Part shown: positions 15,101-33,342 of the stretch, in pieces
Numbering within the stretch: the stretch's first letter is position 1
How the letters are laid out: every line of letters starts with the position of its first letter
Assembly: GCA_030646035.1 (NCBI GenBank)
Contig: JAUSMY010000046.1
Span: 73,072 to 137,071 of the forward strand
Source: Thermodesulfovibrionia bacterium
GTDB lineage: Bacteria > Nitrospirota > Thermodesulfovibrionia > UBA6902
Length of the DNA: 64,000 bases
Reading direction: 5' to 3'
Notes under the pieces: generated by a model
The model's input: the letters and a program-made list of their open reading frames with translations, nothing else
What the model was told of the DNA's origin: nothing
The model's database searches: none
Translations under genes and position numbers: made by a program

Positions 15101-15772
15101 AGTGACGGTTACGCAAATCCTGGTTATGGATATCAGACATCTCCTGAATGGTTTCTAGGTAACTTTGTCGGTGATAAGTGTGATGACTGTCACGGCAACT
15201 CACCGGCCAGTAATTCACACGACAGCCATGTTGTTGGCATACATTATGAAGGTGTTTACACAGGTTCAACAGGTCTCGCATCTGCCGGATCAGGTAATAC
15301 AAACGCTCACGGAAGTTCATCATACTCAACAACAATAAGCTGCAGCACATGTCACAACAGCACCGTGACACAGACTGCAAATGCCGGAAACAATACTTGT
15401 ACAATATGCCACACTGATACTAATTCACCGGCAACCGGCAACGAGTTCGCTGTTATATACGCTTCCGCCACAACCCATATTAACGGGACGCCGGATATAG
15501 CGTTCAATGCGATCAATGTTAAGTCAAAGGCTCAGCTTAGAGATAACACGCAAATTATTACTGATCTTGATGAGACATGGGTCAGGTCTGGCGCTTATAA
15601 GGTGCCTGGGTCATATGACCTTGCGAATAACGCTCTTAATACTGCCATAATGTTTGACAGGGTAAGCAGCACATGTTCAACAGTCGCCTGTCATAATGGC
15701 AACTCGGTTAAATGGGGCGATACAGGCATAAGCTGTAATAACTGTCACACAGATATCCCAAACTTAAATTAG
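12197..15772 (+). CDS. giant secreted multiheme cytochrome c (about 28 heme motifs), doubled CX4CH...CXXCH (Geobacter-type paired motif) family
   Basis: An N-terminal signal or anchor is present. I count 28 CXXCH-class motifs by eye, including CX3CH (CTGACH) and recurrent CX4CH ... CXXCH pairs, for example CSTASCH followed about 27 aa later by CSACH. Low complexity and a rich Gly/Thr/Ser content suggest an extracellular beta-rich protein. Confidence 0.9.
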   Translation: MIKNIKKRAILLLVICLALISSFAYSLDAPHSPANLQDCATCHDFSSSNPYLMTDWTGGYTMQDDDDTPLNHLCRSCHYGGGSAPAHDTHSYLGVGYSSSTASPYGGWQVRCSTCHNPHYQDQAKAYIKTGDTYWKVKLIVGTVISSATSSTIQASVNPAWATNAYVGMHVIPDVNTKYPVSYKITANTSDTLTVKGPLNPATGLPGKTFAIFRGKLIRNQIKLNDIVNQEVSQTGRMTVRFFNASGTKSFADGDTTYDGICEVCHNQTSHFRNSGSAPDQNHTLLGSGIPGQNCTGACHVSSDGFQPSGCSSCHGYPVDTGSLISLDKTGASATSDSQGPGAHIAHNTKFECTNCHTGGMIGGASQGDDLINIGFYLNSNLGGNYDGTASRTVFNYVGSASTTVTTLGTLQCSNLYCHSTGQSSNGASPIPSSYAAPAWNGTAVCGTCHAKAEGEGLTSGSHGAHLGTAGVNGCADCHTGAANDASTYNSANHVNRLIDVANTYGAAGAPGNGYGTCSAASCHSNVYTSGTIATPVWGSTDNGCSACHTTVIDATGPATGGHALHAETTCTLCHNAGTTSATMPSTEHADGDIDTNNVGYSDNKAKGSIYTTCSTASCHANVYASGTIPTPIWGSTGNGCSACHTPAIDPTGPATGSHSAHMSATVKVNGSSIVCVNCHNAGTTSATKPSTEHADGDIDTSASLGYTDNKAKGSAPTTCSTAYCHTNGQDASGTTITQKVTATWGTPATCTTCHDFNGSMQPTTANHTTHITRTGGTCVQCHDVYGDNTTEPDLNSPLHINNVINVAQGGVVTFGYDGNGSGNHAPGYGYGSCSTVSCHGGGATRTWGQMGDACEDCHSNLGGPSGSDRGHGFHVQTAYIGAITASSYGDYTGNDWYAYSNTGGTPDMGCGFCHPQSDATHNNGVVNLNFDPSDTGASATLKFKNDASSTYAQTERTSVTCSSVYCHSDGYANPGYGYQTSPEWFLGNFVGDKCDDCHGNSPASNSHDSHVVGIHYEGVYTGSTGLASAGSGNTNAHGSSSYSTTISCSTCHNSTVTQTANAGNNTCTICHTDTNSPATGNEFAVIYASATTHINGTPDIAFNAINVKSKAQLRDNTQIITDLDETWVRSGAYKVPGSYDLANNALNTAIMFDRVSSTCSTVACHNGNSVKWGDTGISCNNCHTDIPNLN

Positions 15773-15782
15773 GTGATCTGAG

Positions 15783-18700
15783 ATGATTAAAATAAATAAT
15801 AGATCTAAGGGAAACGGTAAAATGATGAAGACAAAAAGATTCAATAATACAGGGCCGGTGCTATTCATTGTTCTTTCAATGGTTTTGGCTGTTTTCATTA
15901 CCGGTGCGGCTTTTGCTGCAAATCCAGATCTCCCCGTAGGTCCTGAACAGTACGTAAGTAAAGGCGATATAGCAATAACTCAGGGGGGGACAACCGACGA
16001 GAGCACTATCAGGATAAAGGCTTCCGTCTCCGACCCGGATCTTAATAATGTTCAAATCCAGGTTGAGATAATAGATAGTTCAGCCTCATATACTAATACG
16101 CCGAACTGCGCCAGCAGTTTTGTTTTAAATGAAGAGGTCGCAACCGCATCCTGCACCGGCCTTCAAGTGGGAACGTCATATAAATGGCAGGTAAGGGCAA
16201 ATGACGGCACAGGCACAAGTGCCTGGGTTCAGTTTGGAGCTACAAACCCTGATGTTACAATCTCTTCTAACCGTATATTGCATAACAGCGCTAATCTCGG
16301 TAATGCATCATATGGGGCATGGGGTGTTGACGGTGGGAAATATGGTGAGTTTGTCTGCGCGACATGCCATACAAAATCAGGCTCAACAACAAATATAAAG
16401 ATGGTAAAGCAAACCATCACTTCGCCTAATGCCTCGGATACATGGCCGAACGGCAGTATAAATACAGGATCTATAATCTTCACGTCAGCAACTGGTACGT
16501 ACGCTGATACAGGAGACGCAAGCTCTACCGGCGGTTGGACTGGAGTCTGTAATGTTTGTCATGACAATGCAAATCATGATCACTACTCCTATAATTCATC
16601 TGACGGGCATCTCGCGGGGCAGGATTGCAATGAGTGTCACCGTCATTCAGTAGGTTATAAGGTAGCATGTGATACATGTCACGGACAGCCTCCTATTATG
16701 TCAGACACAATCAACACAATGGTAAGTATACCAGGGACAACAGGCTCAGCTATTGCCGGAGCGCATAATTTACACGTAAACACCAAGTCATATATTTGTG
16801 ACACCTGTCACTATAATAATATTTCCTCTGTTGAGCATAATAATGGCGGTTCACGAGATATATCTATTGGATTTTATATTGCAAGCGGCAGTATTCAGGG
16901 TGGAAATTATAATGGCCAGTCAGGCGTAGGATATGACGCTTTAACCACAAGTGCTCCAACTACCGTAACTACACCTGCAACCGGCGCTAAGACATGCACA
17001 GTTTACTGTCATAGTTCTGTTCAGTCTGCTGATGGAAGCTCAACTGAGCCTGCATTTTATGCGGCTCCTGTATGGGACAGTAATGTAGTTTGCGGCGGCT
17101 GTCATAAAACTAATGCTCCATATGAAATGATCGATACAGGCAGTCATGTTCAACATCTAACAATAAGTGGAGTAAATGGTTGCGGAGACTGTCATACAGG
17201 AGCGTCAAATGATGCTTCATCATATGCTTCTTCAACACATGTTAACTTTTTAATTGACGTAGCTAACTCATATTCTGCAGGCGGCGCCCGAGGCAATGGC
17301 TATGGAACATGCGCTGAAGCGGCCTGTCATAATGATGGCACAACTAATTCTCTAAGTTCTCCTACATGGGGAAACATTACACCGATGTGTTCACAATGTC
17401 ATGGCGCTGCACCGGCAACAGGCAGCCATACGGCTCACCTTACTACAACAGTTAATGGCAGCAGTATAGTCTGCGGAAATTGTCATAAAGATGCGGTACA
17501 GTCAGTGTCACCGCCTTCGTCCCCCGACCATCTTGACGGTAATGTTGACGTAAAGGATGTAGTTGACGGTGACCTTGGCTATCCGGCCAATGTAGCAAAG
17601 CATACTTCGGGTTCTGGATATTCAGCATGTACAAACGCAAGTTGCCATGTAAGCGCATACGGTACCGGTATGATAACCACGGAAATATGGGGAACGACCT
17701 CCACTTGTGGAACCTGTCATACAATAGATGTCAATGGCGCGCCTGCTACCGGAAGTCATGATAAACATCTCGCATCCAGCGCATTATGCGGTAACTGCCA
17801 TAATGGCTCTGTAAAGGATACAAGCGGCGGTACAGCGCATATTGACGGCAACATTGATGTAACAAATAACTATGCATCAAATGTCGCAAAACATGCTGCA
17901 GGCTCAGGATATTCATCATGCTCTTCTATATACTGCCACAGCAATGTACAGGCTCCGGGTGGAGCTTCAGGCGCTACAATATTCGCAACGCCTACATGGG
18001 GCTCAGGCGCTTTGTCCTGTTCAAGCTGTCATACAGATATGTCCACAACGGAAGACCTTACTCTCGGCACACATAAGAGGCATACAAATACACCGGGTGT
18101 CGCGCAATTTGCATGTTCTATGTGCCATGGGATCGGATACTCGTCAGCTACTGTAACTTATCCGCCTCATGTTAATAACAATATTGACCTGTCATTCACA
18201 GGCCAGGCCTCAGGGACATACTACTCTCAGGTAGGATCAAATCCTCCGGGCAATGGTTACGGCACCTGTTCAACAAGTAATTGCCATGGCCGCGGGACTA
18301 AGAACTGGGGTTTTTCCACAGAATCTCCGACATGTGAGAAGTGCCATGGTTCAGCAGATACAGCATCAGCAACCTTAGCATTCAAGGATACTGCCGGCAG
18401 CACAGGAAGTGTATATGCCGGCACACACGTATCGCATATTGTAGGTATACATAACTATTCAATACCTATTACATGTGATAAGTGTCATATTACGCCGACA
18501 AACCCGTCTGATGCTGGTCACAATGATACGGCAGTGCCTGCCGAACTCACTTTTGCCAGCATGGCAACGCATAATAGATTGGTTGGAACAGTATATACAT
18601 CTGCAATGGCGCCGACATACTCTGGAAGTCCGACAAGGCAGTGTTCAAATACTTATTGTCATGCAGGAGTTCGTGCAACTAATGATGGCGGTGACGACCT

Positions 18701-20219
18701 CGGGCCTGATGGATCTGGGCCGAGTCCTGTATGGGGAGACCCTGCTTATCTTGGCGGCTCAGGTTGCGGTAAATGTCATGGAAATCCTCCTGCATATCCG
18801 CATGAGAATTATTCAGCAAACTGTACTGCTTGCCATACACATGTGGCAGGTAATAACATTGGATTTACTGATAAGACCAAGCATTTGAACGGCTCTCTGG
18901 AATGGGATGTTGACGCGTGTATAGATTGTCATTCCTTTGAGAGCAGCAGGCCGCTGATCGGCGCGCATGTATTGCACACTGATCCGGATTATATGCTTTC
19001 CACTTTCCAATTCTCCGGAACTGCTACAGGCGGAACTACAACTACACTCGAAGACACTTCGCAGAGTTGGGTTGTTAATATTTTGGTTGGAAAGTATGTC
19101 AGACTAAATAGCGGTTCAAATATCTATGACCAGGCTAAAATCACTGCAAATACAGCTACAACAATAACAATTGCTGCGGCATTGCCTTTCAGTATCGCAA
19201 ATGGCAACACTTATGAAGTACGCGCTGCCAAGCTGTTGACTGCTGGAGATTATGGTGATCCGTCATGGATATATAGCATATCGTACAAGAATGGCTTCCC
19301 GAAATATGCCTGCGGCACATGTCATCCTATGGATGATCCTACAATACGTAATAACGGCATAGTTGAGCTTGACCTGGATCCGTCACATGCAGCAGCAGGG
19401 ACAGTTAAAACGAAGAACGCTCCGATTGGCCCGTACCCGCCGATGAGCAGCACTGGCGAGTGGTTCCAGCGGACTACTGGAGTGAGTGTTATATGTAATG
19501 GTATATATTGCCACAGCAATGGATATGTGACTTCAGGTACTTATGCTTTTAAGGAGACTCCTGACTGGTACGATGTCACAATTACTGCAAGCGGTACAGT
19601 TACTTCTGAGCCATGGAGTTCTGTTGACAGGTGTGCTCAGTGCCACGGCAACTCTCCTAACACCGGAGGGACCGAGGGCTCGACAGCTCACGCAAAGCAT
19701 GTTGTGGGCGTACATTACAAGGATCTATACTCCGGCACTACCGGTGAGATGAGCGCAACCGGCTCGTCAGGCGCGGCACACGGAGATCCATTGTCCTCAA
19801 CAACAATTAACTGTAATATATGCCATAGCAATACGGTTTCAGACGGGTTTAATGACAAGAACACGATTTGTTCAACCTGTCATACTGCTTCTCCAGAGGG
19901 TACTATGTACGTTAAGCTGGATAATCAATCGCACATTAACGGAACAGTTAACGTATCATTTGCAAGCGCCACTACTATAAAGTCAAGGGCGCAGGTACGC
20001 GACTACATTACGACAGTTACCGAGATCAATAACAACTGGACCAGGACTAACGGGTACAAGGCGTCTAATTCATATGATACTACTGAAGCCAGTAAGAGTA
20101 CTCCGAATTACAGTGCGGGCACATGTCTGACAACTGCCTGCCATAATGGCACCCCGATGGAATGGGAGCAGGCCGGTCCGCTCTCCTGTAATGCATGCCA
20201 TAAGGGGCTGGCACAGTAG
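15783..20219 (+). CDS. giant secreted multiheme cytochrome c (about 31 heme motifs)
   Basis: An aggtga RBS is present. I count 31 heme motifs (CATCH, CNVCH, CTVYCH, CAEAACH and others). It shares an N-terminal NRILHNS...GG(K/R)YGEF.C.TCH module with ORF 20283 and a C-terminal C(S/L)T.ACHNG...C.N/ACH module with ORF 12197. Confidence 0.9.
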   Translation: MIKINNRSKGNGKMMKTKRFNNTGPVLFIVLSMVLAVFITGAAFAANPDLPVGPEQYVSKGDIAITQGGTTDESTIRIKASVSDPDLNNVQIQVEIIDSSASYTNTPNCASSFVLNEEVATASCTGLQVGTSYKWQVRANDGTGTSAWVQFGATNPDVTISSNRILHNSANLGNASYGAWGVDGGKYGEFVCATCHTKSGSTTNIKMVKQTITSPNASDTWPNGSINTGSIIFTSATGTYADTGDASSTGGWTGVCNVCHDNANHDHYSYNSSDGHLAGQDCNECHRHSVGYKVACDTCHGQPPIMSDTINTMVSIPGTTGSAIAGAHNLHVNTKSYICDTCHYNNISSVEHNNGGSRDISIGFYIASGSIQGGNYNGQSGVGYDALTTSAPTTVTTPATGAKTCTVYCHSSVQSADGSSTEPAFYAAPVWDSNVVCGGCHKTNAPYEMIDTGSHVQHLTISGVNGCGDCHTGASNDASSYASSTHVNFLIDVANSYSAGGARGNGYGTCAEAACHNDGTTNSLSSPTWGNITPMCSQCHGAAPATGSHTAHLTTTVNGSSIVCGNCHKDAVQSVSPPSSPDHLDGNVDVKDVVDGDLGYPANVAKHTSGSGYSACTNASCHVSAYGTGMITTEIWGTTSTCGTCHTIDVNGAPATGSHDKHLASSALCGNCHNGSVKDTSGGTAHIDGNIDVTNNYASNVAKHAAGSGYSSCSSIYCHSNVQAPGGASGATIFATPTWGSGALSCSSCHTDMSTTEDLTLGTHKRHTNTPGVAQFACSMCHGIGYSSATVTYPPHVNNNIDLSFTGQASGTYYSQVGSNPPGNGYGTCSTSNCHGRGTKNWGFSTESPTCEKCHGSADTASATLAFKDTAGSTGSVYAGTHVSHIVGIHNYSIPITCDKCHITPTNPSDAGHNDTAVPAELTFASMATHNRLVGTVYTSAMAPTYSGSPTRQCSNTYCHAGVRATNDGGDDLGPDGSGPSPVWGDPAYLGGSGCGKCHGNPPAYPHENYSANCTACHTHVAGNNIGFTDKTKHLNGSLEWDVDACIDCHSFESSRPLIGAHVLHTDPDYMLSTFQFSGTATGGTTTTLEDTSQSWVVNILVGKYVRLNSGSNIYDQAKITANTATTITIAAALPFSIANGNTYEVRAAKLLTAGDYGDPSWIYSISYKNGFPKYACGTCHPMDDPTIRNNGIVELDLDPSHAAAGTVKTKNAPIGPYPPMSSTGEWFQRTTGVSVICNGIYCHSNGYVTSGTYAFKETPDWYDVTITASGTVTSEPWSSVDRCAQCHGNSPNTGGTEGSTAHAKHVVGVHYKDLYSGTTGEMSATGSSGAAHGDPLSSTTINCNICHSNTVSDGFNDKNTICSTCHTASPEGTMYVKLDNQSHINGTVNVSFASATTIKSRAQVRDYITTVTEINNNWTRTNGYKASNSYDTTEASKSTPNYSAGTCLTTACHNGTPMEWEQAGPLSCNACHKGLAQ

Positions 20220-20282
20220 GTTTATGACGAATATGCGAATGATAATAATTGAAAATAGAATACAAAGTGAGGAGAGATCAGT

Positions 20283-23200
20283 ATGGGAAGGATAATATCA
20301 AATAAGGTCAGTAGCATGAACTGGATGGCAAAGATCAGTCTCGTGCTGGTCTTCACTATGTTTTTCAGCATTCAAGGTTGGTATAGTCCAAAAATCGTTC
20401 AGGCTGCTATATCGAAACCGTCTAACTGGGCATCACAGTATGCCGCTGTCGCATATCCTGCCGGCACAATAAATGCCGCTTACACGGTAGCCGCTGGCAC
20501 TAACCGCCTGCTGGTTGTGGCTATATCATCCACACAAACCGCGGTCGGCACTGCGCAGACAGTGAGCAGCATCACTTATGGCGGACAGCCTCTTACATTA
20601 GCGGCCGGTGACGGGTCTTCTACTGTTACCTGGAACCATACATATCTCTATTACCTGAATGAGGCCGGTATACAGGCCGCTTCAGGCACAGCTCTTAATG
20701 TCACCATCTCAGGCGGCACATCTTACTATAACTGGGTTTATGCAGCGGTTTATGCAGGCGTGGATCAGACAGGCACACCTTATACTGATGCCAAAAATTT
20801 TAATAGCGTTGCAGCCTCAACAGCTGTAGGCCCTTTTAGTCCGACCCTGACAATAAATGTAAATGACCAGGCGATAGAGATCGTTAACCTTGCCAGAAGT
20901 ACTGCAAACGTAACTGCCCGCACAATTACCACATGGGCTACAGGCTGGACTACTGCAGGAGTTGCTCCTGCGAGTATTGTTACGAGTGGTCCAACAGCAA
21001 CAATGTATATTAGAGACAGAAATCTGCTGACTACCGCTAATGACGGCTCCCAGCATACAGAGAGCAATGCTGCCGCATTCGATTCAATGACAGCAATGAG
21101 CATTCAAGTTGCCCCTGTCGATTCCACACCTCCGAATGTCAGCACTGTGAATGTGGATCCGACATATACTAATGGCCCCACATCATACACAACGAGCGCA
21201 CCTGTTATCACGGCAATACTTACGGATGCTGAATCAACAGTGACAGGGTGTGAATATACAACGAACGGCTCAACATGGGTTACGGGTGTACTTACAGGCT
21301 CAAGCTCACCATGGACCTGCACCGGAAGCCCGACTGGTCTTACCGGTTCTCTTACACTTAATATACGCGGGACATCTTCAGCACCTGGCTATGGCACCGG
21401 CGTATCACAGGCAAGGACAGTGGATGTTGCTGTTCCAATAACAACTGATAGTTTGGTGTCATTTAATTGGGTTTCAACAGAAGATACTGTAACACTATAC
21501 CCGGTTGATGGCGGTTCTGGCGTTACTGCGGCAACAGGCATATATGGATGTTTCGGCACAGGCTGTACACCGGTTGTTCTTGGCGGGAACACTATGACGT
21601 CTGCCTGCGGAGCCGGCAATGAATGTTGGCTTGATGTTAGGTATTATTCCAAGGACAATCTCAATTGGACTGAGTCTACTGTGACATCCGCTTTTCAGGT
21701 ATTGGTTGACAGAGCGGCTCCTGCTGGACTTGCCGCTTCAAGCCCTGCTGATGAGGCATTAGATCTGCCGACCAGCACTACAGTCGATTCTACAACAGCA
21801 ACAGATAACGGAAGCGGTTCTATTGAATATTATTTTGAAGTTGATACAGATCCGGGCTTTTCCGCTCCTCAGACAGGCGGGTGGCAGGCAGGCACAAGCT
21901 ATGCGCCAACTCTTGCAAGCGGCCCGACATATTTCTGGCGCGTAAAGGCACGGGATGTCATTGGAAATGCAACCGCATGGACAACGCCAAGAAGTTTTTC
22001 AACTCTGGCGTCTTGTACGCGCAATGACCCGACTTTAACACTGGAAACTGACACAGGAGCTGTTCAAGGGTTTATCACTACTAACGGCGGCACAAAAGAT
22101 TACATATTAACGGTTATTAATAATGATAACGGTGGATGCGGAGATACAACTTTTGATTTCACTGTAACAGATACTGATGGTGGCAATAACTTTGATGCTC
22201 CCATATTGAGTTCTTTAATTGCTACTCTTGCGCCGGGGGCGCAGACTATCAGGACAGTTACTGTTACAGCTACTGCCGGCAAGACAACAGGGCAGAGCCT
22301 GACGTATGTAAACTATGACGGTATTGATCCAAATCATCTGAATGTTGTTAATTCCAATAATGTTACGACATTCATAAATGTTGTAGATTGCAATGCAAAT
22401 GTGCCATATCTTATCATTGGGCCTGACTCAGGTAATGTGGCAATCGGTGGAGACATTCAATATACTGTTACAGTGCAGAATACTGACACCGGGTCAGGGT
22501 GTTCAGCAGTAATATATAATATAAATATAGACAGTGAAACAAATTCAGCTAACTTTATTCTCCCTTCAACACTAAGTCTTCCGAGCAAGACTCTCTCTCC
22601 GGGACAGAAAGGCAGTGTTACAATTACAGTAACCTCAAAGATTGGAGCTGTACTTGATGAGATCAATATCACTACGATAGGTGTGACAGCTACCGGTCAT
22701 ACATCTCCTGCTGACGCAACTGCAACAACAACAGTGGGTAACCGTATCCTGCATAACTCAATAAATACAGGCTCAACCAAGTGGTCATCATCCGGCGGAT
22801 GGGGTGTTCCGGGCGGCAGATACGGTGAGTTTGACTGCACGACATGCCATACTACATCTGACGCGACTAACATAAAGAAGATCAGCAGTTCCATTACAAC
22901 GCCTAATCCGGCATCAGGAACATTGCCCGGTGACGGTCAGTCTATTGTTTTTACTACAATCAGCGCAGTCTCAGGAACATCCGGAGTGTTAGGTGATGAT
23001 TCAGATGCTACGAGAACGAGTTCAAACAGGATCTGTGAGGTGTGCCATACATATGATGTCTCTGGAGTGAATGGTGTTGTAGTTCATGCGTATGATCAGG
23101 TGACCTATGTTTCAGAATCTGTAACCAATAATCATCAGAACGCAAATGCAACTGACTGCATAGCCTGTCACAAGCATAAAGTCGGATTTATGCCTCCTGA

Positions 23201-25934
23201 CTGCGGAAGCTGTCATGGTAATCCTCCGGGAGCAGGTACTCCCGCGGGTTCGCTTGCCAGCAGTCCAAATACAACAGGTTCTGTGACTGTTGGAGCGCAT
23301 AATACTCATTACACCACACTTGGATATGGATGTTATACTTGCCATACCGGCTCTGTAATGCCTCATGAGAGTACTGCTTTGCCGGGACAGGGAGATATTA
23401 ATATCGGATTTAGCGCTTTTGGCTCAACATCTGGAACATACAGCGGCCAGACAGGTGTAAGCTATAATGATGTTGCAGGTACCGGAGGCCTTAACTGCTC
23501 AGCCTTATATTGTCACGGAGCAACACTTGACGGCACTTCAACCACTGCTCAGTGGAATGGGACGGTCGCATGCGGTAATTGCCATAAGGCAACAGCAGCT
23601 AATACGCCTACACTTGGCAACCATGCACGTCATGCGGGCAGCACTCAGGTGAATATAGCCTGTTCAGATTGTCACGGAGCTAACGGCGCAGGCGGTGGCG
23701 GACATGTTGGCGGAACAGTACAATGGGGTTTGAATACTTCAAGCGCGCTATTTGGAACGAGCGCACAATACAACTCAGCAGCATCCGGTACTAAGAACAA
23801 CTTGGCTCCGAGTTCATCGTATCAGACATGTACGACACTTTATTGCCACAGTAATGCACAGGGCGCAAGCGGGGTCGGAGTTCCTTCATCATATAAGTCG
23901 CCATTATGGGGCGCAGGAACGCTTGGCTGTGCAGGCTGTCATGTTGATATGACAAGCGCATCTGGCACCGCAAGCCATATTAAACATGCAAATTCATATG
24001 GTATGACATGTTCGAATTGCCACACCGGCTATACAGCAAGCACAACAAACGCTTCTGTACATGCAAACAACACTATAAATGTCACATTAGCTTCTGGCAC
24101 CTATTCCGGAGGCACCACACCGGGTGACCATGCTTCGGGCGGCGGATATGGAAGCTGTTCTACCAATAACTGTCACAGCGACGGCAAGGCAACACCATCT
24201 ACTTATACGAATCCCGCATGGGGCGGCACAGCAGCCTGCGGCACATGTCATGGAGTCGCAGCGGCTACACCGCCTGCGTCTACGCCGCATACCAAGCATG
24301 TCGGCACAGCGGCGAATTACAAGTACGCCTGCTACAAGTGTCATACTAATGTAGCTGTAACAGCGGATTCAACAACATCAGCTACTCTTAACGGCACCTA
24401 TACAACAACACATGTGAACGGCACAAGGAATGTTGACTTTGACGCTTCTTCAGTAGGCGGCTCATGGGCAAGCACTCAGTGCTCCAATACCTATTGTCAC
24501 AGCGCTGGCACAACATTCACAGTTGCTTCAGCAACACATTCGGCAATATCATGGAGCGGTACCAAGGATTGCGCTGGTTGTCATACAGGCGGCATATCAA
24601 CAGGACCGAGCTATACAAACAATTCACCTAAGACCAATACGCACGCACAGCATGTGACCACTTCTGGCTATGTCTGCGTTGACTGCCATAGCGGCACGGT
24701 CACCGGCTCTAACACTATCTCTGATACTTCAAAGCATCTTAACAAGGCTTATGATGTTTCAGGCGCAAGTGTGACTACATATTCATATGTATCTGACGGC
24801 GGCACATGTACGACAAAATGCCATGGGACAAAGACTGTGAAGTGGGGTACACAGACAACTGACGCTACATGTGTGAAGTGTCATGGTGTTGTCGGCACGA
24901 CATCAGTCCAGTATGCTTCGATGACAGCTACAGCAGCGCCCGGCTTTAACGGCACAGGGCTTGACACTAATGGCGAAGCCTCTGATACTGACAGTCAGGT
25001 AGGAGCGCATAATTCGCATCTTAACTCAGTAAGCAATTACAGTAGTGATATAGCCTGTAATGAGTGCCATGCGGTTCCTGCATCAGTCAATGCATCAGGG
25101 CATATAGACTCAACTCTTCCTGCTGAATTGACCTTTGGCACACTTGCCTCAACTAACGTGGGTTCAACCACAGCTCCGAACTATGCAAGTCCGAGCTGTA
25201 CAAATACATATTGCCATTATGGTAAATCATGGGGCGGCTATAGTCCTACTACTGCCAATGCAGCAGTCTCATGGATAAATACAGCTTATCTCAGCGGCAC
25301 GCCAAGCCTTGCCGGTGACTGTAATAAGTGTCATGCGTCACCTCCATCGAGCCATGCCGGCGGTATGGTGATAGCTGATTGTATCGGCTGTCATACACAT
25401 TTGAATAATGACGGAACCTTCCTGGATCCTTCTCTGCATATCAATGGTTTAGTTGACGCTGCCGGCGGCGGATGCGGCGGATGCCATGATTATGATAATG
25501 CCGGATCAAACTATGCCGGCGGTGTCTGGACAGGCGGCACCTGGGGCAAACTTCCCCATAGGGACGACCCGACAAATGAAGGATGGGGCGCGCACGCAGA
25601 GCATATAAATCATATTAAGACAAGGCTTGCTATCACATATGTTCTTTCAACATCAAACCAGACCTTTGGTACAGGCGAGCCTGCCAATGTTTGCGGAACC
25701 TGTCATACTAACACGGGCGGCAACCATTCAACAGGCGGCAGCACAGTACGTTCTATTAACTTTGGCGACGGAACATATAAATACGGCGGAGCTTCAGGCA
25801 CCAGCATCGCCTTGATGAGCTCAACCAACCCGACTTATAACGGTGTGAGCGCGACGTCTTCATTGGTGAATCCGAAGACCTGCTCGAACATTAGTTGTCA
25901 TTACAGCACAACCCCGGTATGGGAAGCATTTTAG
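20283..25934 (+). CDS. giant multiheme cytochrome c (about 26 heme motifs) with an ~800-aa non-heme N-terminal beta-rich region
   Basis: A gaggag RBS is present. The N-terminal anchor is MNWMAKISLVLVFTMFFSIQGW. Roughly 800 aa of Thr/Ser/Gly-rich Ig- or fibronectin-like sequence precede the first heme motif. I then count 26 motifs including CX3CH (CTTKCH) and CX4CH. Confidence 0.9.
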   Translation: MGRIISNKVSSMNWMAKISLVLVFTMFFSIQGWYSPKIVQAAISKPSNWASQYAAVAYPAGTINAAYTVAAGTNRLLVVAISSTQTAVGTAQTVSSITYGGQPLTLAAGDGSSTVTWNHTYLYYLNEAGIQAASGTALNVTISGGTSYYNWVYAAVYAGVDQTGTPYTDAKNFNSVAASTAVGPFSPTLTINVNDQAIEIVNLARSTANVTARTITTWATGWTTAGVAPASIVTSGPTATMYIRDRNLLTTANDGSQHTESNAAAFDSMTAMSIQVAPVDSTPPNVSTVNVDPTYTNGPTSYTTSAPVITAILTDAESTVTGCEYTTNGSTWVTGVLTGSSSPWTCTGSPTGLTGSLTLNIRGTSSAPGYGTGVSQARTVDVAVPITTDSLVSFNWVSTEDTVTLYPVDGGSGVTAATGIYGCFGTGCTPVVLGGNTMTSACGAGNECWLDVRYYSKDNLNWTESTVTSAFQVLVDRAAPAGLAASSPADEALDLPTSTTVDSTTATDNGSGSIEYYFEVDTDPGFSAPQTGGWQAGTSYAPTLASGPTYFWRVKARDVIGNATAWTTPRSFSTLASCTRNDPTLTLETDTGAVQGFITTNGGTKDYILTVINNDNGGCGDTTFDFTVTDTDGGNNFDAPILSSLIATLAPGAQTIRTVTVTATAGKTTGQSLTYVNYDGIDPNHLNVVNSNNVTTFINVVDCNANVPYLIIGPDSGNVAIGGDIQYTVTVQNTDTGSGCSAVIYNINIDSETNSANFILPSTLSLPSKTLSPGQKGSVTITVTSKIGAVLDEINITTIGVTATGHTSPADATATTTVGNRILHNSINTGSTKWSSSGGWGVPGGRYGEFDCTTCHTTSDATNIKKISSSITTPNPASGTLPGDGQSIVFTTISAVSGTSGVLGDDSDATRTSSNRICEVCHTYDVSGVNGVVVHAYDQVTYVSESVTNNHQNANATDCIACHKHKVGFMPPDCGSCHGNPPGAGTPAGSLASSPNTTGSVTVGAHNTHYTTLGYGCYTCHTGSVMPHESTALPGQGDINIGFSAFGSTSGTYSGQTGVSYNDVAGTGGLNCSALYCHGATLDGTSTTAQWNGTVACGNCHKATAANTPTLGNHARHAGSTQVNIACSDCHGANGAGGGGHVGGTVQWGLNTSSALFGTSAQYNSAASGTKNNLAPSSSYQTCTTLYCHSNAQGASGVGVPSSYKSPLWGAGTLGCAGCHVDMTSASGTASHIKHANSYGMTCSNCHTGYTASTTNASVHANNTINVTLASGTYSGGTTPGDHASGGGYGSCSTNNCHSDGKATPSTYTNPAWGGTAACGTCHGVAAATPPASTPHTKHVGTAANYKYACYKCHTNVAVTADSTTSATLNGTYTTTHVNGTRNVDFDASSVGGSWASTQCSNTYCHSAGTTFTVASATHSAISWSGTKDCAGCHTGGISTGPSYTNNSPKTNTHAQHVTTSGYVCVDCHSGTVTGSNTISDTSKHLNKAYDVSGASVTTYSYVSDGGTCTTKCHGTKTVKWGTQTTDATCVKCHGVVGTTSVQYASMTATAAPGFNGTGLDTNGEASDTDSQVGAHNSHLNSVSNYSSDIACNECHAVPASVNASGHIDSTLPAELTFGTLASTNVGSTTAPNYASPSCTNTYCHYGKSWGGYSPTTANAAVSWINTAYLSGTPSLAGDCNKCHASPPSSHAGGMVIADCIGCHTHLNNDGTFLDPSLHINGLVDAAGGGCGGCHDYDNAGSNYAGGVWTGGTWGKLPHRDDPTNEGWGAHAEHINHIKTRLAITYVLSTSNQTFGTGEPANVCGTCHTNTGGNHSTGGSTVRSINFGDGTYKYGGASGTSIALMSSTNPTYNGVSATSSLVNPKTCSNISCHYSTTPVWEAF

Positions 25935-25949
25935 AGTGAGGGGTAGAAT

Positions 25950-28900
25950 ATGAAAATTATAAAAGTGAGGGAGATCAACATGAGAGGGACAAAAGATAAA
26001 AAGACCGGAGGCATGAACTTGAGGAAGCCCAAGATCAGTCTCGTGCTGATCTTCACTATAATATTAAGTATCTTTATGCTTCAGGGCTGGATCGGCTTGA
26101 AATCTGCAGATGCGATGCCGCTGGTAAAGAAGGGCACTATTGTAAAGAACACGGCCACCGGCGCGCAGGCTGTCACCGGAGTGGGGTTCCAGCCCAAGGC
26201 TGTGGTGTTCTGGTGGACGAGGCAGAACACATTTAACGCGAACAACGCCGGCATTTCCACAGGTTACGGCTATGCCGCTGCCTTGCCGACAATCACTCAG
26301 GGATCAGTTGCCGCAGCGGCAAGGGATAATCTGGCGACAACTGACAACAATTTCATGGAGTCAATCACATACTCTATCGTTATACTTAATCCCGGCGCTA
26401 CGGGCACGCCGATGGTTGCCAGGGCCTCGGTCACTGCATTCGGAGCTGACGGCTTCACCCTTAACTGGCAAACCAACGAGGCGCAGGCCAACCAGATACA
26501 CTATATGGCTATCGGAGGCGCGGATATAACGGATGCCAGGGTTGGCACCTTTGCCGGACCTGCTGTAGCAGGCTCAGCAGCGGTCACAGGGGTTGGCTTT
26601 CAACCGGACGCGGTGTTGTTTGTTGCGGGCAATAGGACCGGAGTTACATGGGACACAATTGTCGCTGAGGGCGCGCAGACGATAGGCTTCATGTCGTCTG
26701 CCACATCACAAGCGTCAATAGGCTGGTCTGCCAGAGATGCTCAGACCGCGCTATCAAACGCTCATGCATGGTCCGGGGCGCAGGCCATTACAGGGCTCAG
26801 GCGTAACGCCCTTGACCAACAGGCAGCCTTCACCTCCATGGACGCTGACGGATTCACCTTAAACTTCACACAAACAGGCGGTGCTTCTAATTATATTTAT
26901 TTGGCCCTCAAGGGCGGACTTTTTAAAATGGGCACGTTCAATAAAAACACAGCGGCAGGCGCGCAGAGCGTCACCGGCTTAGGATTCCAGCCCAGCGGCC
27001 TGATGCTTTTAAGCGAGAGCGACAACGTGGCAGCGGCCACGGCCCGCGCCAGTGCCAACCCGGCCTCAAACCTCTCCATCGGCGCCACAGACGGCACAAC
27101 ATCCGGTTCGACATGGATGCACTATCGGTCAATCGCCACAACAGACACCAACACATTTACATATAACACGAATATTATGAAGATGGGCATAAATACTAAC
27201 GCCACTGTAACTAACTACGGCGAGGCCACGTTTACGTCCTTCAACACAGACGGATTTACGATAAACTGGACCACCTCAGACGCCACGGCCCGTAACTTAA
27301 TCTATTGGGCCATCGGCGGGGTACTAGGTGATTCAGTGAATGTCGCAGATGGTACTGACCCAGCGAATGCTAACGCAGGCCGCGGCAGTACAAATAATAT
27401 AGCTGACAGCTTTACGATGGTCGCAGTCAATACCCTGGATGGCCTGGCAGATGTAACCGGTGTTACTTCAAGCTTTACAAACAGTGCAAACATCTCGGGC
27501 GTCAGGCTATATAAAGATAACGGGGTTGCAGGGACATATGAGCCCGGGACTGATACGCTGCTTTCGACCGGAACACCCGGTGCATCAGTAAGCTTTACGG
27601 GCTTTACTGAAAACCTTACAACAACAGCGGCAAACTACCTGATTTTAGTTGATATCGCAGGCGGCGCTACTTTGGCGCAGACAATTGATACCTCTGTAAC
27701 CGCTGTTACGGTTACGTCTCCTGATGTGCAGGGCACTATATCAGACGCATCCAATCCAACAAGGCTTACCATTATTGATCTGCCGCATGAAGATGCAGGT
27801 ACGGCATCAAATACAGCAATAGCTGCAAGTCCTCAGCTTGAAGGCGGAACAGGCATTCTGATGCAGCGTTTTCAGGTTTCGAGCGCAACCAGCAGCGCAG
27901 GCGCGCAGGACAATCAGCTTGAGCTTAACTCTCTCGGCATTGACGACCTCGGCACTGCAACCGGAGCCAGGACCGCAAAGGCGTATATTGATACAACAAG
28001 CTCTGCAACGCTTCCCGGAACAGCGGTGCTCATCGGGACTCTCTCTTCATGGACAGGCGCTCCCACAACGATAACCCTGAATCAGGGAACCGCAGGTGAC
28101 AGAACAGTAACTAACGCAACTCCGAGGTACATATATATTGTCTATGATCTGCCGGCAGGCGCGACCCAGACCGTTCAGTCAAGTATCACATCTGTAGGCG
28201 CTGTCAGCCCTGATGCCGGACAGACAGGCCTTACATTGAACTCAAATGCGATCACACTAAGCGCTGACCCGTCAACTATTACATCATGCGCCGGCTGTCA
28301 TGGCTATGGAGCCACACTTACAGATGGCACAGCGCGTAATGTTCCGGATGGCAAGTTCCCCGGTTCTCATAATAAACATGTAAATACTTATGGCAAGGCA
28401 TGTTCAGTATGCCATGCTGTGCCAGCAACTGAAACAGGCGCGAATTATACACACCGTAACAACACCATTGAGATGTCTGGCTCTATTAACGGAACATCCG
28501 GGGCTGTATATGTTAAAGGCACAAGCTGGACACAGACAACCATACCTGCTGCTTATACGGGATGTACCAACACTTATTGCCATAGCAGCGGAGTAGGTGT
28601 TCTCTCCGGCACAATTCCGTCCAACACATCGATAACATGGGGAACAACCGCTACATGCGGCAGTTGTCATGGCACGGCCTTAGATGATGGCAGGCCTAAT
28701 TACACAAACAATAGCCCTAAACGTAATACGCACGGTGATGGCGCAAGCTATGGCGTTACACACAAAGCTACTGCATGTACAACGTGCCATACAGGTGTAT
28801 CAGGGACTGCAGGTTCATATACAGTTGATCCTGCAACACATAACAACGGGGTATATAACCTGTCTGGGACATTTGGATATACGCAGGCTACAGGCACATG

Positions 28901-30245
28901 CTCAACACCCGGCTGCCACGGTTCATCAACCTGGGGCACCTCACTCGGCTGCGTTGACTGCCATGCCTCGGCACAGGGAACTCGTAGTATTATCACCGGC
29001 GCTTCTGGTGAATTCGGTTTGGCATGGGGACATAAGAAATCCGCACGTGGAACTGTGACCGATGCTGATTGTATCGTCTGTCATCTTGAAGGTGCGTATA
29101 CTTCCGGCGTAGGTTCAGCAGTCGCGAAGACAGCCTATCATTCCGGAGCTCCTAATGGCAACATAGACCTGCGTGATCCTGACGGGGCTGGTGAGACTGC
29201 GATCACAAATAATAGCGGCGGTGCATTTACCTTCACTAAGTACTCGATATCATATGCTGCCGGCTCCCGTACGACGACCTTGGGTAACACAATTCCTGAA
29301 GTTATCACGGTTAAGTTCTGTATGAAATGTCATGACAGTAATGGCGCTACCAATACAACCGCACGATCGAACAACGGCGGTACCGGTACTGCTACACAGC
29401 CGTTTGGCGGCATAAGCACCGGATATTCCGTAATTAACGGCGCTGCAGCCGTTAATGGGCTCATCGATGTAAGCACCCAGTTTGCCGCAGCCAACTCTTC
29501 ACGGCATCCTGTAGGCGCTCCGAACTCGAGGAGGTATCCATATTCAACACGGCTCGCTTCTCCATATAATAATATTGGAACAACAAGGGATGCTAATACA
29601 CAAGTTGGCAATACCGCAACGCCACGTGTCGCGGCAAACAGCGTTGTTCTCGTCTGTGATGATTGCCATACCGTAACTACTGCCGCAGGCTCGTTGCCGA
29701 GCTTAACGAATCGTACTATTACGGCACACGGTACTGCTCAAACAGATAACGTGCGTGGTACATTTATGGTTGCGACTCCTGTGTTGTGTCTGTCATGTCA
29801 TGGTGGGACTACTACTCCAAATACAACAACTGCACAGATCGATACCACCAACGGAGATCACAATCCCGGCTCAGCCTATGCGGTCGGCACGACCAGAGTC
29901 AATAGTTTTATAAGTAATTGCGGATACTGCCACTTTAGCGCTTTAACAACACCGGTCAGACCTATCAAGGCTCAGGATATTCACGGCTTCAATGGGATGC
30001 AGACAACAGGCGCAGCATGGGCATGGGGTACTATATCTGGTATGCGGCCGGTTGCATTTATGCGTAACGTAGCTAATTTTGCAACTGCATCACCTCGTCC
30101 TTATAGTGCGACACTTGCAGGCCCGGGCCAGTTTACCCTTGCCGGAGGTCAATCCTCTTGTGCCGGAACAGGCGATCTTACTAATGGCTCTTGTTCTGGT
30201 CAGACAGGTAAGCATACCCCATACTCACCGGGTGGTTCATACTGA
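25950..30245 (+). CDS. giant cytochrome c (about 12 heme motifs) with an N-terminal region of 3-4 internal ~110-aa repeats
   Basis: A gagggg RBS is present. The anchor KISLVLIFTIILSIFMLQGW is homologous to that of ORF 20283. Internal repeats are built around VTG(V/L)GFQP and GFT(L/I)N(W/F)(Q/T)T. The C-terminal half carries 12 heme motifs including CX4CH (CTNTYCH, CSTPGCH). Confidence 0.85.
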   Translation: MKIIKVREINMRGTKDKKTGGMNLRKPKISLVLIFTIILSIFMLQGWIGLKSADAMPLVKKGTIVKNTATGAQAVTGVGFQPKAVVFWWTRQNTFNANNAGISTGYGYAAALPTITQGSVAAAARDNLATTDNNFMESITYSIVILNPGATGTPMVARASVTAFGADGFTLNWQTNEAQANQIHYMAIGGADITDARVGTFAGPAVAGSAAVTGVGFQPDAVLFVAGNRTGVTWDTIVAEGAQTIGFMSSATSQASIGWSARDAQTALSNAHAWSGAQAITGLRRNALDQQAAFTSMDADGFTLNFTQTGGASNYIYLALKGGLFKMGTFNKNTAAGAQSVTGLGFQPSGLMLLSESDNVAAATARASANPASNLSIGATDGTTSGSTWMHYRSIATTDTNTFTYNTNIMKMGINTNATVTNYGEATFTSFNTDGFTINWTTSDATARNLIYWAIGGVLGDSVNVADGTDPANANAGRGSTNNIADSFTMVAVNTLDGLADVTGVTSSFTNSANISGVRLYKDNGVAGTYEPGTDTLLSTGTPGASVSFTGFTENLTTTAANYLILVDIAGGATLAQTIDTSVTAVTVTSPDVQGTISDASNPTRLTIIDLPHEDAGTASNTAIAASPQLEGGTGILMQRFQVSSATSSAGAQDNQLELNSLGIDDLGTATGARTAKAYIDTTSSATLPGTAVLIGTLSSWTGAPTTITLNQGTAGDRTVTNATPRYIYIVYDLPAGATQTVQSSITSVGAVSPDAGQTGLTLNSNAITLSADPSTITSCAGCHGYGATLTDGTARNVPDGKFPGSHNKHVNTYGKACSVCHAVPATETGANYTHRNNTIEMSGSINGTSGAVYVKGTSWTQTTIPAAYTGCTNTYCHSSGVGVLSGTIPSNTSITWGTTATCGSCHGTALDDGRPNYTNNSPKRNTHGDGASYGVTHKATACTTCHTGVSGTAGSYTVDPATHNNGVYNLSGTFGYTQATGTCSTPGCHGSSTWGTSLGCVDCHASAQGTRSIITGASGEFGLAWGHKKSARGTVTDADCIVCHLEGAYTSGVGSAVAKTAYHSGAPNGNIDLRDPDGAGETAITNNSGGAFTFTKYSISYAAGSRTTTLGNTIPEVITVKFCMKCHDSNGATNTTARSNNGGTGTATQPFGGISTGYSVINGAAAVNGLIDVSTQFAAANSSRHPVGAPNSRRYPYSTRLASPYNNIGTTRDANTQVGNTATPRVAANSVVLVCDDCHTVTTAAGSLPSLTNRTITAHGTAQTDNVRGTFMVATPVLCLSCHGGTTTPNTTTAQIDTTNGDHNPGSAYAVGTTRVNSFISNCGYCHFSALTTPVRPIKAQDIHGFNGMQTTGAAWAWGTISGMRPVAFMRNVANFATASPRPYSATLAGPGQFTLAGGQSSCAGTGDLTNGSCSGQTGKHTPYSPGGSY

Positions 30246-30275
30246 TCATATTACTGATGTAGTTTTGTAAGTTGT

Positions 30276-30310
30276 AAAAGCCCCACCTCAATGCAGGTGG
30301 GGCTTTTTTT
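30276..30310 (+). terminator. Rho-independent terminator closing the cytochrome operon
   Basis: The hairpin AAAGCCCCACCT-caatgc-AGGTGGGGCTTTTTTT has a GC-rich 9-10-bp stem followed by T7. Confidence 0.8.
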
Positions 30311-30350
30311 CTGGTAATGAAACGTATAATAGAAGAAGTTGTTTTGTCGT

Positions 30351-30451
30351 CATACCCGTGCTTAAGACACCTACTGTTGGCGAAGGCGGGTATCCAGAAG
30401 TCTTTGTTTTTCAAAGAAACTGGATTCCCGATAAAGGAACTCGGGAATGAC
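30351..30451. repeat. gene-less miniature copy of the palindromic-end element that flanks the GIY-YIG gene
   Basis: It consists of gtcatacccg...cgggtatccag, a 22-bp palindromic spacer, and ctggattcccg...cgggaatgac. The architecture and end motifs (gtcatWcc.../...ggaatgac) match the two ends of the 31899-32256 element. Confidence 0.5.
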
Positions 30452-31875: not shown

Positions 31876-31898
31876 GCTGGTTACCTAATGTAGTTTTG

Positions 31899-32256
31899 TC
31901 ATTCCTGCGGTCTTTTGAGCAGGAATCCAGAATATTATATGAAGGATTTCTATGTATATATTCTTTCCAATAAGAGAAATGGCACATTGTATACAGGTAT
32001 AACTTCTGACCTTATTAAACGAGTTTATGAGCATAAGAATAATCTTGTTGATGGATTTACCAAAAAACATAATATTCACCGATTAATATGGTATGAAAAC
32101 CATAAATCACCAGAAGCAGCTATCACCAGAGAAAAGCAGATAAAGAAATGGAAAAGGATCTGGAAATTGGAACTTATTGAAAAAGAGAATCCTGAATGGA
32201 ATGATTTATATGAAAACATTTTATTATAACTGGATTCCTGCTTTCGCAGGAATGAC
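31899..32256. mobile_element. putative GIY-YIG mini-element bounded by inverted palindromic ends
   Basis: The left end is gtcattcctgcgg...gcaggaatccag (31899-31930). The right end is ctggattcctgc...gcaggaatgac (32230-32256). The right end is the reverse complement of the left, and each end is itself a hairpin. The only cargo is the GIY-YIG gene. Confidence 0.45.
31939..32229 (+). CDS. GIY-YIG nuclease superfamily protein (YhbQ/UPF0213-like, 96 aa)
   Basis: The protein begins MKDFYVYILSNKRNGTLYTGITSDLIKRVYEHK, a canonical GIY...YTG GIY-YIG core. The ORF-track start at 31915 falls inside the upstream hairpin, so ATG 31939 is preferred. Confidence 0.8.
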   Translation: MKDFYVYILSNKRNGTLYTGITSDLIKRVYEHKNNLVDGFTKKHNIHRLIWYENHKSPEAAITREKQIKKWKRIWKLELIEKENPEWNDLYENILL

Positions 32257-32259
32257 GGC

Positions 32260-33342
32260 ATGACCATACTAAACAATATATATAAATTCCTCTCATCCTA
32301 TAAGCTGGCTATGGCGCTTCTGGTCATTATTCTTGCCTGCTGCCTGTCAGGGGTTACGATATGGCGCGGCGCTGAAGCATGGATGCTGATATTTAATTCG
32401 CTCTGGTTTAACGGACTTCTGTTTCTGCTGGTTATCAATGTAGCCTGCTGCTTTTTTGGCAGGATCTGGGGACGGCGGGTGACGGTCATTTCCTTCGGGA
32501 TGATCCTGTTTCACTTAAGCTTTGTCTGTATGTTCCTTGCTATTGTCTACAATACCCTGTTCTGTTTTCGTGGGGACATCAGGTTAACTGAAGGCGAATC
32601 AATCCCCAGCGGTGACTTGCAAAGTTATGATAGTGTCGAAAAAGGGCTTTTTTTCAATTTTTCGCAACTCCGTGGAGAAACATCTCTTATTAAAATGCAC
32701 GCTGATTATAAAGTTTCGGGAAACGATAAACGCGCTGCCTATGAAATATCAGTTGGAGAAGAGAACAACAAAAAGCAGGGAATTATTTACATAACTCATA
32801 AATTGACCCATCGAGGTTTCGATTATTTTAACGATAAAGAAGGATATTCTTTACTAATAATGCTCTCTGACAAAAGGGGGCAGGATCTGTATGGAGCGCA
32901 TGTCCCACTGCAGAGCATAGTGTTAGGGAAAGACATGTTTGAGTATTCTACCGGCTTCAAAGTTGAAGGTAAGGTCAAGAAGGATGTTATCCCGTTTCCT
33001 GCTCCTCCGGAAACGATCTTTGCCTTGAAGACCGAGTATATTCCATCGAAGGTCAAAGAGCGTGCAGGGGATGTTCACTACCTTCTATATCCACTTAATG
33101 AAGTAGGCCTTCCTAATCTTGACAAGCCGTTAGCAGAAGGCATGGCAGCTATCGGCGAATCATTTGCTGCCGGAGAGTATTTTCTGACAGTCAAAGAGGT
33201 GCGTTACTGGGTTGGTATGAAGGTAAGCTATGAACCGGGCAAGCCGATCGTGCTGACATCCCTCTGGGTTGCTTTGGCAGGGATGATAATTACGACTGTC
33301 GGCAGGATGGTGCGGAGAAAAGGCCCGGTCACTTCCCGTTGA
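32260..33342 (+). CDS. ccsB: cytochrome c biogenesis system II protein CcsB/ResB-like
   Basis: The N-terminus KFLSSYKLAMALLVIILACCLSGVTIW...LWFNGLLFLLVINVACC matches the ResB N-terminal TM pair. The large periplasmic domain, C-terminal TM and pairing with ccsA at 37513 support the call. Confidence 0.65.
   Translation: MTILNNIYKFLSSYKLAMALLVIILACCLSGVTIWRGAEAWMLIFNSLWFNGLLFLLVINVACCFFGRIWGRRVTVISFGMILFHLSFVCMFLAIVYNTLFCFRGDIRLTEGESIPSGDLQSYDSVEKGLFFNFSQLRGETSLIKMHADYKVSGNDKRAAYEISVGEENNKKQGIIYITHKLTHRGFDYFNDKEGYSLLIMLSDKRGQDLYGAHVPLQSIVLGKDMFEYSTGFKVEGKVKKDVIPFPAPPETIFALKTEYIPSKVKERAGDVHYLLYPLNEVGLPNLDKPLAEGMAAIGESFAAGEYFLTVKEVRYWVGMKVSYEPGKPIVLTSLWVALAGMIITTVGRMVRRKGPVTSR

Follow-up and report, generated by a model that had tools for sequence, protein, structure and literature searches.

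Ssn nucleases are single-domain GIY-YIG enzymes of ~95 amino acids, of which homologues from Neisseria and Wolbachia have been studied (Chenal et al., Nat Commun 2025; PMC11893778). SsnA, the 94-aa product of N. meningitidis NMV_0044/NMB0047, belongs to the CDD group cd10448 (GIY-YIG_unchar_3). Its homologues are flanked by short repeats, with at least one nearby in 71% of cases and repeats on both sides in 42%. In Neisseria this repeat, known as NTS, has the sequence CGTCATTCCCGCGMAVGCGGGAATCYRG, and the wider class to which it belongs has been termed Ssn-related motifs (SRM). Binding of the hairpin by SsnA and three homologues requires single-stranded DNA (ssDNA), and these enzymes cut the hairpin-bearing strand a few nucleotides 5′ of it. 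The enzyme reads the stem sequence together with an oriented GTC tag and C tail; cutting depends most on the three nucleotides before the palindrome and binding most on the C after it. The Neisseria enzyme lost its cutting activity on stem changes that left the hairpin intact, and cutting was also abolished by mutation of Y6, Y17 and E64 in SsnA. The IS-like architecture of ssn cassettes was noted in the same study, where mobility was raised as a possibility and not demonstrated (PMC11893778).

Repeats of this kind had been catalogued earlier as CGTC-tagged REPs, found mostly as inverted dimers (Di Nocera et al., BMC Genomics 2013; PMC3733652). One family, CGTC-1, takes in the dRS3 repeats of Neisseria and RPE-6 of Rickettsia. 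CGTC-REPs were reported to 'apparently lack a dedicated transposase', and many REPs have been argued to act as RNA elements (PMC3733652).

The locus described here was found in a 64-kb window (the whole stretch of DNA analysed) from a Thermodesulfovibrionia (Nitrospirota) MAG. Judged by sequence comparison, it very probably comprises an SRM-ssn-SRM cassette of the Ssn system and, 1.5 kb upstream, a REP dimer of the same hairpin superfamily. The cassette is a fresh example of the system described in 2025 and no new kind of mobile element. An earlier note on this DNA had called such elements poorly characterised, a description that does not survive a reading of the literature: the Ssn nuclease with its SRM/NTS hairpins has been published (PMC11893778) and the hairpins are the CGTC-REPs of the earlier catalogue (PMC3733652). 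The system, the repeat association and the analogy with mobile elements are all already in print; the residual novelty is whether the cassettes transpose.

The nuclease gene and four neighbouring hairpins

The ssn gene (31939-32229, plus strand) encodes a 96-aa protein whose residues 4-74 are spanned by the Pfam GIY-YIG domain (PF01541, E 3e-15), with no second domain. Compared by BLASTP with the SsnA orthologue of N. gonorrhoeae, used here in place of the N. meningitidis sequence, the product shows 56% identity and 82% positives over 90 aa (E 2e-41, 118 bits), and tblastn against a plasmid collection returned the same orthologue at E 5e-30; the homology criterion applied in PMC11893778 was E < 1e-10. 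The gonococcal frame matched has 94 codons and is taken to be the SsnA orthologue because Tyr6, Tyr17 and Glu64 fall at the positions mutated in that study. In the BLASTP alignment, Y7, Y18 and E65 of the window protein align with Y6, Y17 and E64 of SsnA. A 100% identical protein, 'GIY-YIG nuclease family protein [Thermodesulfovibrionia bacterium]', is present among 5.8 billion proteins searched, the next relative being 82% identical. NCBIfam holds no model for the Ssn family, none of the PADLOC defence models matches and no Rfam family reaches threshold; viral contigs yielded no ssn relatives and the phage search two weak matches only. The tblastn matches came from two N. gonorrhoeae chromosomes misfiled as plasmids. 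In PLSDB, the record NZ_CP119142 (locus L082, 1489-1773) is listed among plasmids although it is a 2.17-Mb chromosome; its SsnA orthologue opens with an in-frame ATT, a nearby ATG being out of frame, and this gonococcal copy may be start-defective.

Two other identities have to be weighed for so small a GIY-YIG protein. A free-standing, I-TevI-like homing endonuclease, cutting a double-stranded target and spread by homing, could be suspected from a weak match to the group I intron endonuclease model TIGR01453 of NCBIfam (E 0.0019). However, the score of 18.3 bits is far under the cut-off of 56, the 96-aa protein is without a DNA-binding domain, an intron or intein context is absent and SsnA, at 118 bits, is far closer; homing is thus very improbable. 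A housekeeping protein of the UPF0213/YhbQ type, with hairpins that merely regulate its expression, is suggested by the sole match to a solved structure, UPF0213 protein BH0048 (1ZG2, E 4.6e-5), but that match reaches only 27 bits against the score for SsnA. The gene is also missing in syntenic relatives and foreign in composition, as set out below, and the same hairpins occur in gene-less pairs as well, all of which leaves a housekeeping role very improbable. Assignment to the Ssn family is preferred over both.

Hairpins were sought across the 64-kb window with the pattern GTCATNCCNG...CNGGNATCCAG, using 100 dinucleotide-preserving shuffles as a control. Exactly four sites were found, against none in the shuffles, and all four sit no more than 1.9 kb from ssn; a search that tolerated up to three mismatches to the consensus gave no fifth copy anywhere in the window. 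Two of the hairpins enclose the gene. The earlier note had placed the GIY-YIG ORF between inverted, hairpin-forming ends, and this is borne out: the flanking arms are exact reverse complements across 12 and 13 nt and both ends fold significantly as ssDNA. The left hairpin, likewise real, starts one nucleotide before the 31899 originally given (31898-31930, plus strand). It was recovered by the pattern search in the form (T)GTC-ATTCCTGC-10-nt loop-GCAGGAAT-CCAG, a long-loop subtype, and folds at -6.8 kcal/mol (z -3.35); its loop subtype, GCAGTCCTTTGAGC, recurs in loci L015, L020, L021, L031 and L039. The right hairpin (32230-32256, minus strand), recovered by the pattern and mismatch searches, reads (C)GTC-ATTCCTGC-GAAA-GCAGGAAT-CCAG on the minus strand and folds at -7.8 kcal/mol (z -4.96). 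It begins right behind the ssn stop codon and its end lies 3 nt upstream of the ATG of the next gene. Its minus strand, CGTCATTCCTGCGAAAGCAGGAATCCAG, is the NTS consensus save for one compensatory pair, C:G having become T:A.

The gene-less inverted pair reported upstream, with its 22-nt spacer, is also present, its start corrected from 30351 to 30349. The left member (30349-30397, plus strand), found by the pattern search, has the form GTC-ATACCCG...CGGGTAT-CCAG, whose stem differs from those of the other copies by a compensatory A:T swap. With a long loop insert its fold is weak when taken alone (z -0.6, not significant). This extra stretch of ~21 nt (TGCTTAAGACACCTACTGTTG, 30359-30379) stands between the 5′ arm and an otherwise canonical GCGAAGGCGGGTATCCAG half, and looks like a small insertion into the loop. 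The right member (30420-30451, minus strand), from the same search, reads (T)GTC-ATTCCCGA-loop-TCGGGAAT-CCAG on the minus strand and folds at -6.8 kcal/mol (z -5.0); its CCCGA...TCGGG subtype also occurs in hairpin pairs of other Nitrospirota genomes (L002, L013, L017, L023). Between the two, the spacer (30398-30419, 22 nt) has a small palindrome of its own, TCTTTG-TTTTT-CAAAGA, read directly from the sequence, which forms a third small stem when the whole pair is folded (-21.8 kcal/mol, z -4.0).

Three of the four window copies form 8-bp ssDNA hairpins (z -3.4 to -5.0), and all four retain the GTC tag and the C that follows the palindrome. The right cassette hairpin fits the CGTC-1 form (C/T-GTC tag, 8-bp stem beginning AT, 4-nt loop, CCA tail); the other three keep tag, stem and tail, with loops longer than in that form. 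The published SRM string, HGTCWYN(0-2)YYVSBRHN(0-5)WNVSBRGN(0-2)RNCYNB, is matched exactly by one of the four, the left cassette hairpin (31898-31930). Two others miss it by 2 substitutions, which in the right cassette hairpin are exactly the two sides of one base pair, and the last cannot fit, its loop being too long. As a control, the canonical gonococcal NTS matches the string, which occurs 8 times in a 3.3-kb part of the gonococcal locus. By their sequence, the hairpins are CGTC-tagged REPs (Di Nocera et al., 2013), alias NTS/SRM repeats, and are predicted ssDNA recognition sites of the nuclease rather than the terminal inverted repeats (TIRs) of a classical transposon. Specificity of the window enzyme for the T:A-variant and long-loop hairpins is assumed.

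Genomic setting and relatives

The surroundings of the cassette are those of a multihaem-cytochrome cluster. Four consecutive giant multihaem cytochrome genes (12197-30245; 1191, 1478, 1883 and 1431 aa) are followed by genes for a PD40-repeat protein and for cytochrome maturation of the ResB/CcsA type. The gene order of the cluster is conserved in relatives, and the ResB-like protein shares 62-63% identity with its Geobacter/Geotalea counterparts. Seven syntenic contigs of relatives were fetched via the downstream ResB-like protein (72-81% identity), and all seven share the order giant cytochrome, PD40-repeat protein, ResB-like protein, small minus-strand ORF and PMT-family glycosyltransferase. 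In each of the seven, the PD40-ResB gap measures 26-194 nt and holds neither ssn nor a hairpin; the cytochrome-PD40 gap, home of the gene-less pair in the window, is likewise free of hairpins in all of them. The comparison of orthologous loci for presence or absence, put forward in the earlier note, has given a clear difference. In composition, too, the gene stands apart: the ssn ORF has a GC content of 29% (GC3 28%) against 45.5% for the window, which places it in the lowest 0.16% of 291-nt windows. Because it is absent from the seven syntenic contigs and its gene differs so far in GC content, the cassette was acquired horizontally and inserted between the PD40-repeat and ResB-like genes of this Thermodesulfovibrionia (Nitrospirota) cluster. 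Cassette and gene-less pair are both lineage-specific additions, and the cassette looks foreign.

The junction with the ResB-like gene shows some further features. The 3′ arm of the right hairpin (GCAGGAAT) provides an AGGA Shine-Dalgarno-like motif 8 nt before the ResB-like ATG at 32260 (region 32242-32262). As the hairpin stops 3 nt short of this ATG, insertion of the cassette may have given the ResB-like gene its present ribosome-binding site, which the hairpin could sequester in mRNA. The ResB-like ORF (32260-33342, 360 aa) is without the N-terminal extension of ~25 aa (…FPVEPRYHPIHKIP…) found in most of the 380-385-aa homologues. Truncation of the gene by the cassette is unsupported: no remnant is found upstream, and two homologues are also short at the N-terminus, namely P0144 (355 aa), which has nearly the same start as the window ORF, and P0127 (366 aa).

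A scan of species-representative genomes returned 378 ssn relatives; the 80 best of these, which are 60-80% identical and represent more than 12 phyla, were analysed. A relaxed detector (GTC tag, stem of at least 7 bp, then C) located at least one hairpin in 76 of these 80 loci. In 48 of the same best 80 of 378, a plus-strand hairpin upstream and a minus-strand hairpin downstream of the gene have their GTCAT tags facing outward. Beside the gene, hairpins reach a density of 7.2/kb, which falls to 0.21/kb at distances above 500 bp and compares with 0.03/kb in shuffled sequence; the enrichment next to the gene is ~34-fold across phyla. When a stricter detector was applied, the upstream hairpin typically lay 4-20 nt from the start codon and the downstream one 0-5 nt behind the stop, so that a unit spans ~350-400 bp. 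Outside the tag there is no conservation except for a pyrimidine at -1, and gene-less inverted (+,-) pairs are common near the relatives. Outward-facing tags are the majority form among close relatives of the window cassette; this orientation is not universal, as the nearest hairpins at the gonococcal ssnA locus face inward, opposite to those of the window.

A detector that selects for pairing gives a count that leans towards it, and this circularity was avoided by retrieving hairpins beside the 80 homologues by their anchors only (GTC, 20 nt, CCAG). Pairing in the hairpins so retrieved amounts to 98.8%, and most stem positions show double-sided, compensatory changes. At least 7 of the 8 stem pairs are kept in each of the 41 distinct sequences, and T:A occurs in 14 where C:G occurs in 24. 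Within the loops of some SRMs lies a nested insert of 40-60 nt that starts with TGGAGTTTAYCCC (or its reverse complement), seen in several unrelated genomes (L008, L018, L021, L044, L047, L063 at 3293-3373, and L064); this insert may represent another small element, one with the hairpin loop as its target. What had appeared to be a 2.9-kb insertion in the right hairpin of L063 was rejected, being a nested loop insert of only ~57 nt.

These data bear on whether the hairpins are ordinary REP, terminator or mRNA-stabilising stem-loops that happen to adjoin a GIY-YIG gene. The hairpins are intergenic and one pair falls just after a terminator (30276-30307), whilst many REPs have been argued to be RNA elements (PMC3733652). 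That terminator, after the cytochrome gene, is the only convincing one in the scan, which otherwise gave two unrelated sites. Against a coincidence, the terminator scan passes over all four hairpins, none of which has a T-run; all four cluster near ssn; the enrichment beside homologous genes extends across phyla; and the association of gene and repeat is in print (PMC11893778). The earlier note had allowed that the palindromes might prove to be terminator hairpins with no tie to GIY-YIG genes, a doubt that these observations dispel, and chance adjacency is scarcely credible.

Possible mobility of the cassette

By analogy with the studied homologues, the window Ssn would cut the strand bearing these hairpins a few nucleotides 5′ of the tag. 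Because the hairpins are inverted with their tags outward, the predicted cuts would fall just outside the cassette and on opposite strands, with the top strand cut on the left and the bottom strand on the right. Such cuts could be made whenever the region is single-stranded, during replication, repair, DNA uptake or transfer. The enzyme would most likely serve to process or restrict ssDNA that bears such hairpins, and the cassette and the loose hairpin pairs would persist as a nuclease-repeat partnership of a RAYT/REPIN-like kind, either semi-selfish or domesticated.

It may further be hypothesised that the cassette moves autonomously. In its general form, the proposal is that SRM-ssn-SRM cassettes are, or recently were, autonomous ssDNA mobile elements with a hydrolytic GIY-YIG end-cleaver, and that CGTC-REP pairs are their non-autonomous progeny; we advance this tentatively. 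In its active form, which extends the explanation preferred above, Ssn would cleave the ends and host repair or ligation would complete the move, the gene-less pairs being REPIN- or MITE-like copies or landing pads; this is possible, although on present evidence rather doubtful. The insertion polymorphism, the GC outlier, the outward tags and the within-genome paralogues fit an autonomous element without proving it. The cassette is present here and at no syntenic site in the relatives, and discrete units of ~350-450 bp recur inside single genomes in different contexts. In genomes with two cassettes, homology is confined to roughly the unit, with 73-86% identity in three genomes, and in an Acetothermia MAG the cassettes L058 and L065 share 97% identity across 451 bp. 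In 60% of relatives (48/80, best of 378) the cassette lies between the predicted cleavage sites, flanks are unconserved outside the tag but for the pyrimidine at -1, and gene-less (+,-) pairs are frequent. The IS-like architecture noted for ssn cassettes (PMC11893778) and the want of a known transposase for CGTC-REPs (PMC3733652) point the same way.

Several observations tell against this proposal. Target-site duplications, which the earlier note had suggested looking for, did not materialise: no direct repeat flanks the window cassette or the gene-less pair, and across 50 cassettes the distribution of best direct repeats equals the shuffled null. GIY-YIG chemistry alone cannot perform strand transfer. 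GIY-YIG enzymes act on DNA by hydrolysis, without a covalent intermediate; rejoining would need host functions, and strand-transfer chemistry is not known in this enzyme family. The ends would be cut on opposite strands, unlike those of IS200/IS605 elements, and the 64-kb window has a single ssn gene and only four hairpins. No recent spread of the window copy is visible, its nearest homologue among the 5.8 billion proteins being only 82% identical. The pair hairpins differ in subtype from those of the cassette and so give no sign of recent derivation. The gene-less pair had been read as a MITE-like derivative of the cassette; its origin by deletion from the resident cassette was rejected, as its stems (ATACCCG and ATTCCCGA versus ATTCCTGC) and its loops both differ from those of the cassette ends.

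The sole near-identical paralogue pair sits in a larger element with its own outer inverted repeats. In the Acetothermia MAG, the shared unit (L058 2895-3344, L065 2935-3385) runs 33-39 nt past the hairpins and ends in outer inverted repeats (GGWTCWTCTCC..AAAWWGTTGCA), on either side of which lie direct repeats of ~9 nt. This larger unit, with its own outer and direct repeats, suggests that the Acetothermia cassettes have been mobilised by another system. Each of the two ORFs seems to be damaged, through a stop codon in one case and a frameshift in the other. The same outer motif also flanks cassettes of Nitrospira-related MAGs (L024, L026 and L016 are listed with the Acetothermia copies). Inverted repeats beyond the hairpins were found only in this subset (Acetothermia, some Nitrospira), and neither in the window nor at most loci. 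A 15-nt near-repeat, CT[GA]ATGTAGTTTTGT, stands after the cytochrome stop codon (30254-30268) and again just before the left hairpin (31885-31899). It was considered as a target duplication and set aside, the first copy being native and partly conserved in hairpin-free relatives; the near-repeat is probably due to chance.

The description of the locus in the earlier note as a tiny mobile unit is therefore upheld in part. It is a discrete unit, with counterparts in 48 of the 80 relatives, and it was acquired; its ends are not the TIRs of a classical transposon and no target-site duplication accompanies it. No follow-up paper demonstrating mobility of ssn cassettes was found in the literature searched. 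The results leave current understanding of the Ssn system unchanged, whilst providing comparative data on a question left by the 2025 paper, namely whether the cassettes move. The locus adds to the Ssn nuclease family a Nitrospirota example with a compensatory stem variant. As sequence-specific ssDNA cutters these enzymes are of biotechnological interest, each enzyme-hairpin pair being a potential new specificity. Were the cassettes autonomous, they would supply the 'missing transposase' of the CGTC-REPs and constitute a second, convergent REPIN/RAYT-like system.

Comparison with known systems

Intrinsic terminators consist of a GC-rich stem and then a T-run, which the four window hairpins do not have. 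Unlike a MITE or classical TIR transposon, neither cassette nor pair is flanked by a target-site duplication. Homing endonucleases of the I-TevI type join a nuclease domain, a linker and a DNA-binding domain, in contrast to the 96 aa of the window protein. Some features are shared with IS200/IS605, in which subterminal hairpins are recognised as ssDNA, the element is very small and the target is not duplicated. There, however, the hairpins lie on the same strand and an HUH TnpA acts through covalent intermediates, whereas the window hairpins are on opposite strands and the enzyme is unrelated, with no HUH domain.

The RAYT/REPIN system (REPtron; Nunvar 2010; Bertels & Rainey 2011) resembles the locus in plan. 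In both, one small nuclease gene stands between inverted short hairpin repeats, the same repeats occur elsewhere as inverted doublets, recognition is of ssDNA and target-site duplication is absent. The likeness is one of architecture only, as RAYT is an HUH-Y1 tyrosine transposase and the window enzyme a hydrolytic GIY-YIG nuclease, and the window repeats are tagged (C/T)GTC instead of GTAG. With the CGTC-1 REPs, the resemblance extends to the sequence: a Y-GTC tag, an 8-bp stem starting AT, a 4-nt loop and a CCA tail, all exact in the right hairpin. These REPs are also frequently inverted dimers, often heterodimers, with spacers of 20-100 bp, as in the window pair (30349-30451). The 2013 survey (PMC3733652) described them without a dedicated enzyme, whereas in the window and in the 2025 paper such repeats bracket a GIY-YIG gene.

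The closest counterpart is the Ssn/SRM system itself (PMC11893778). The two share a single-domain GIY-YIG protein of ~95 aa with the catalytic Tyr/Tyr/Glu conserved, a gene flanked left and right by GTCAT-stem-loop-stem-CCAG hairpins almost identical to the NTS consensus, and extra hairpins clustered nearby. They differ in that the window host is a Thermodesulfovibrionia (Nitrospirota) MAG and the system is known here from its sequence alone, that a T:A pair replaces the C:G of the NTS stem and long loops are found in three of the four hairpins, and that the tags face outward in the window and inward at gonococcal ssnA. Four hairpins are present in the 64-kb window, compared with hundreds per Neisseria genome.
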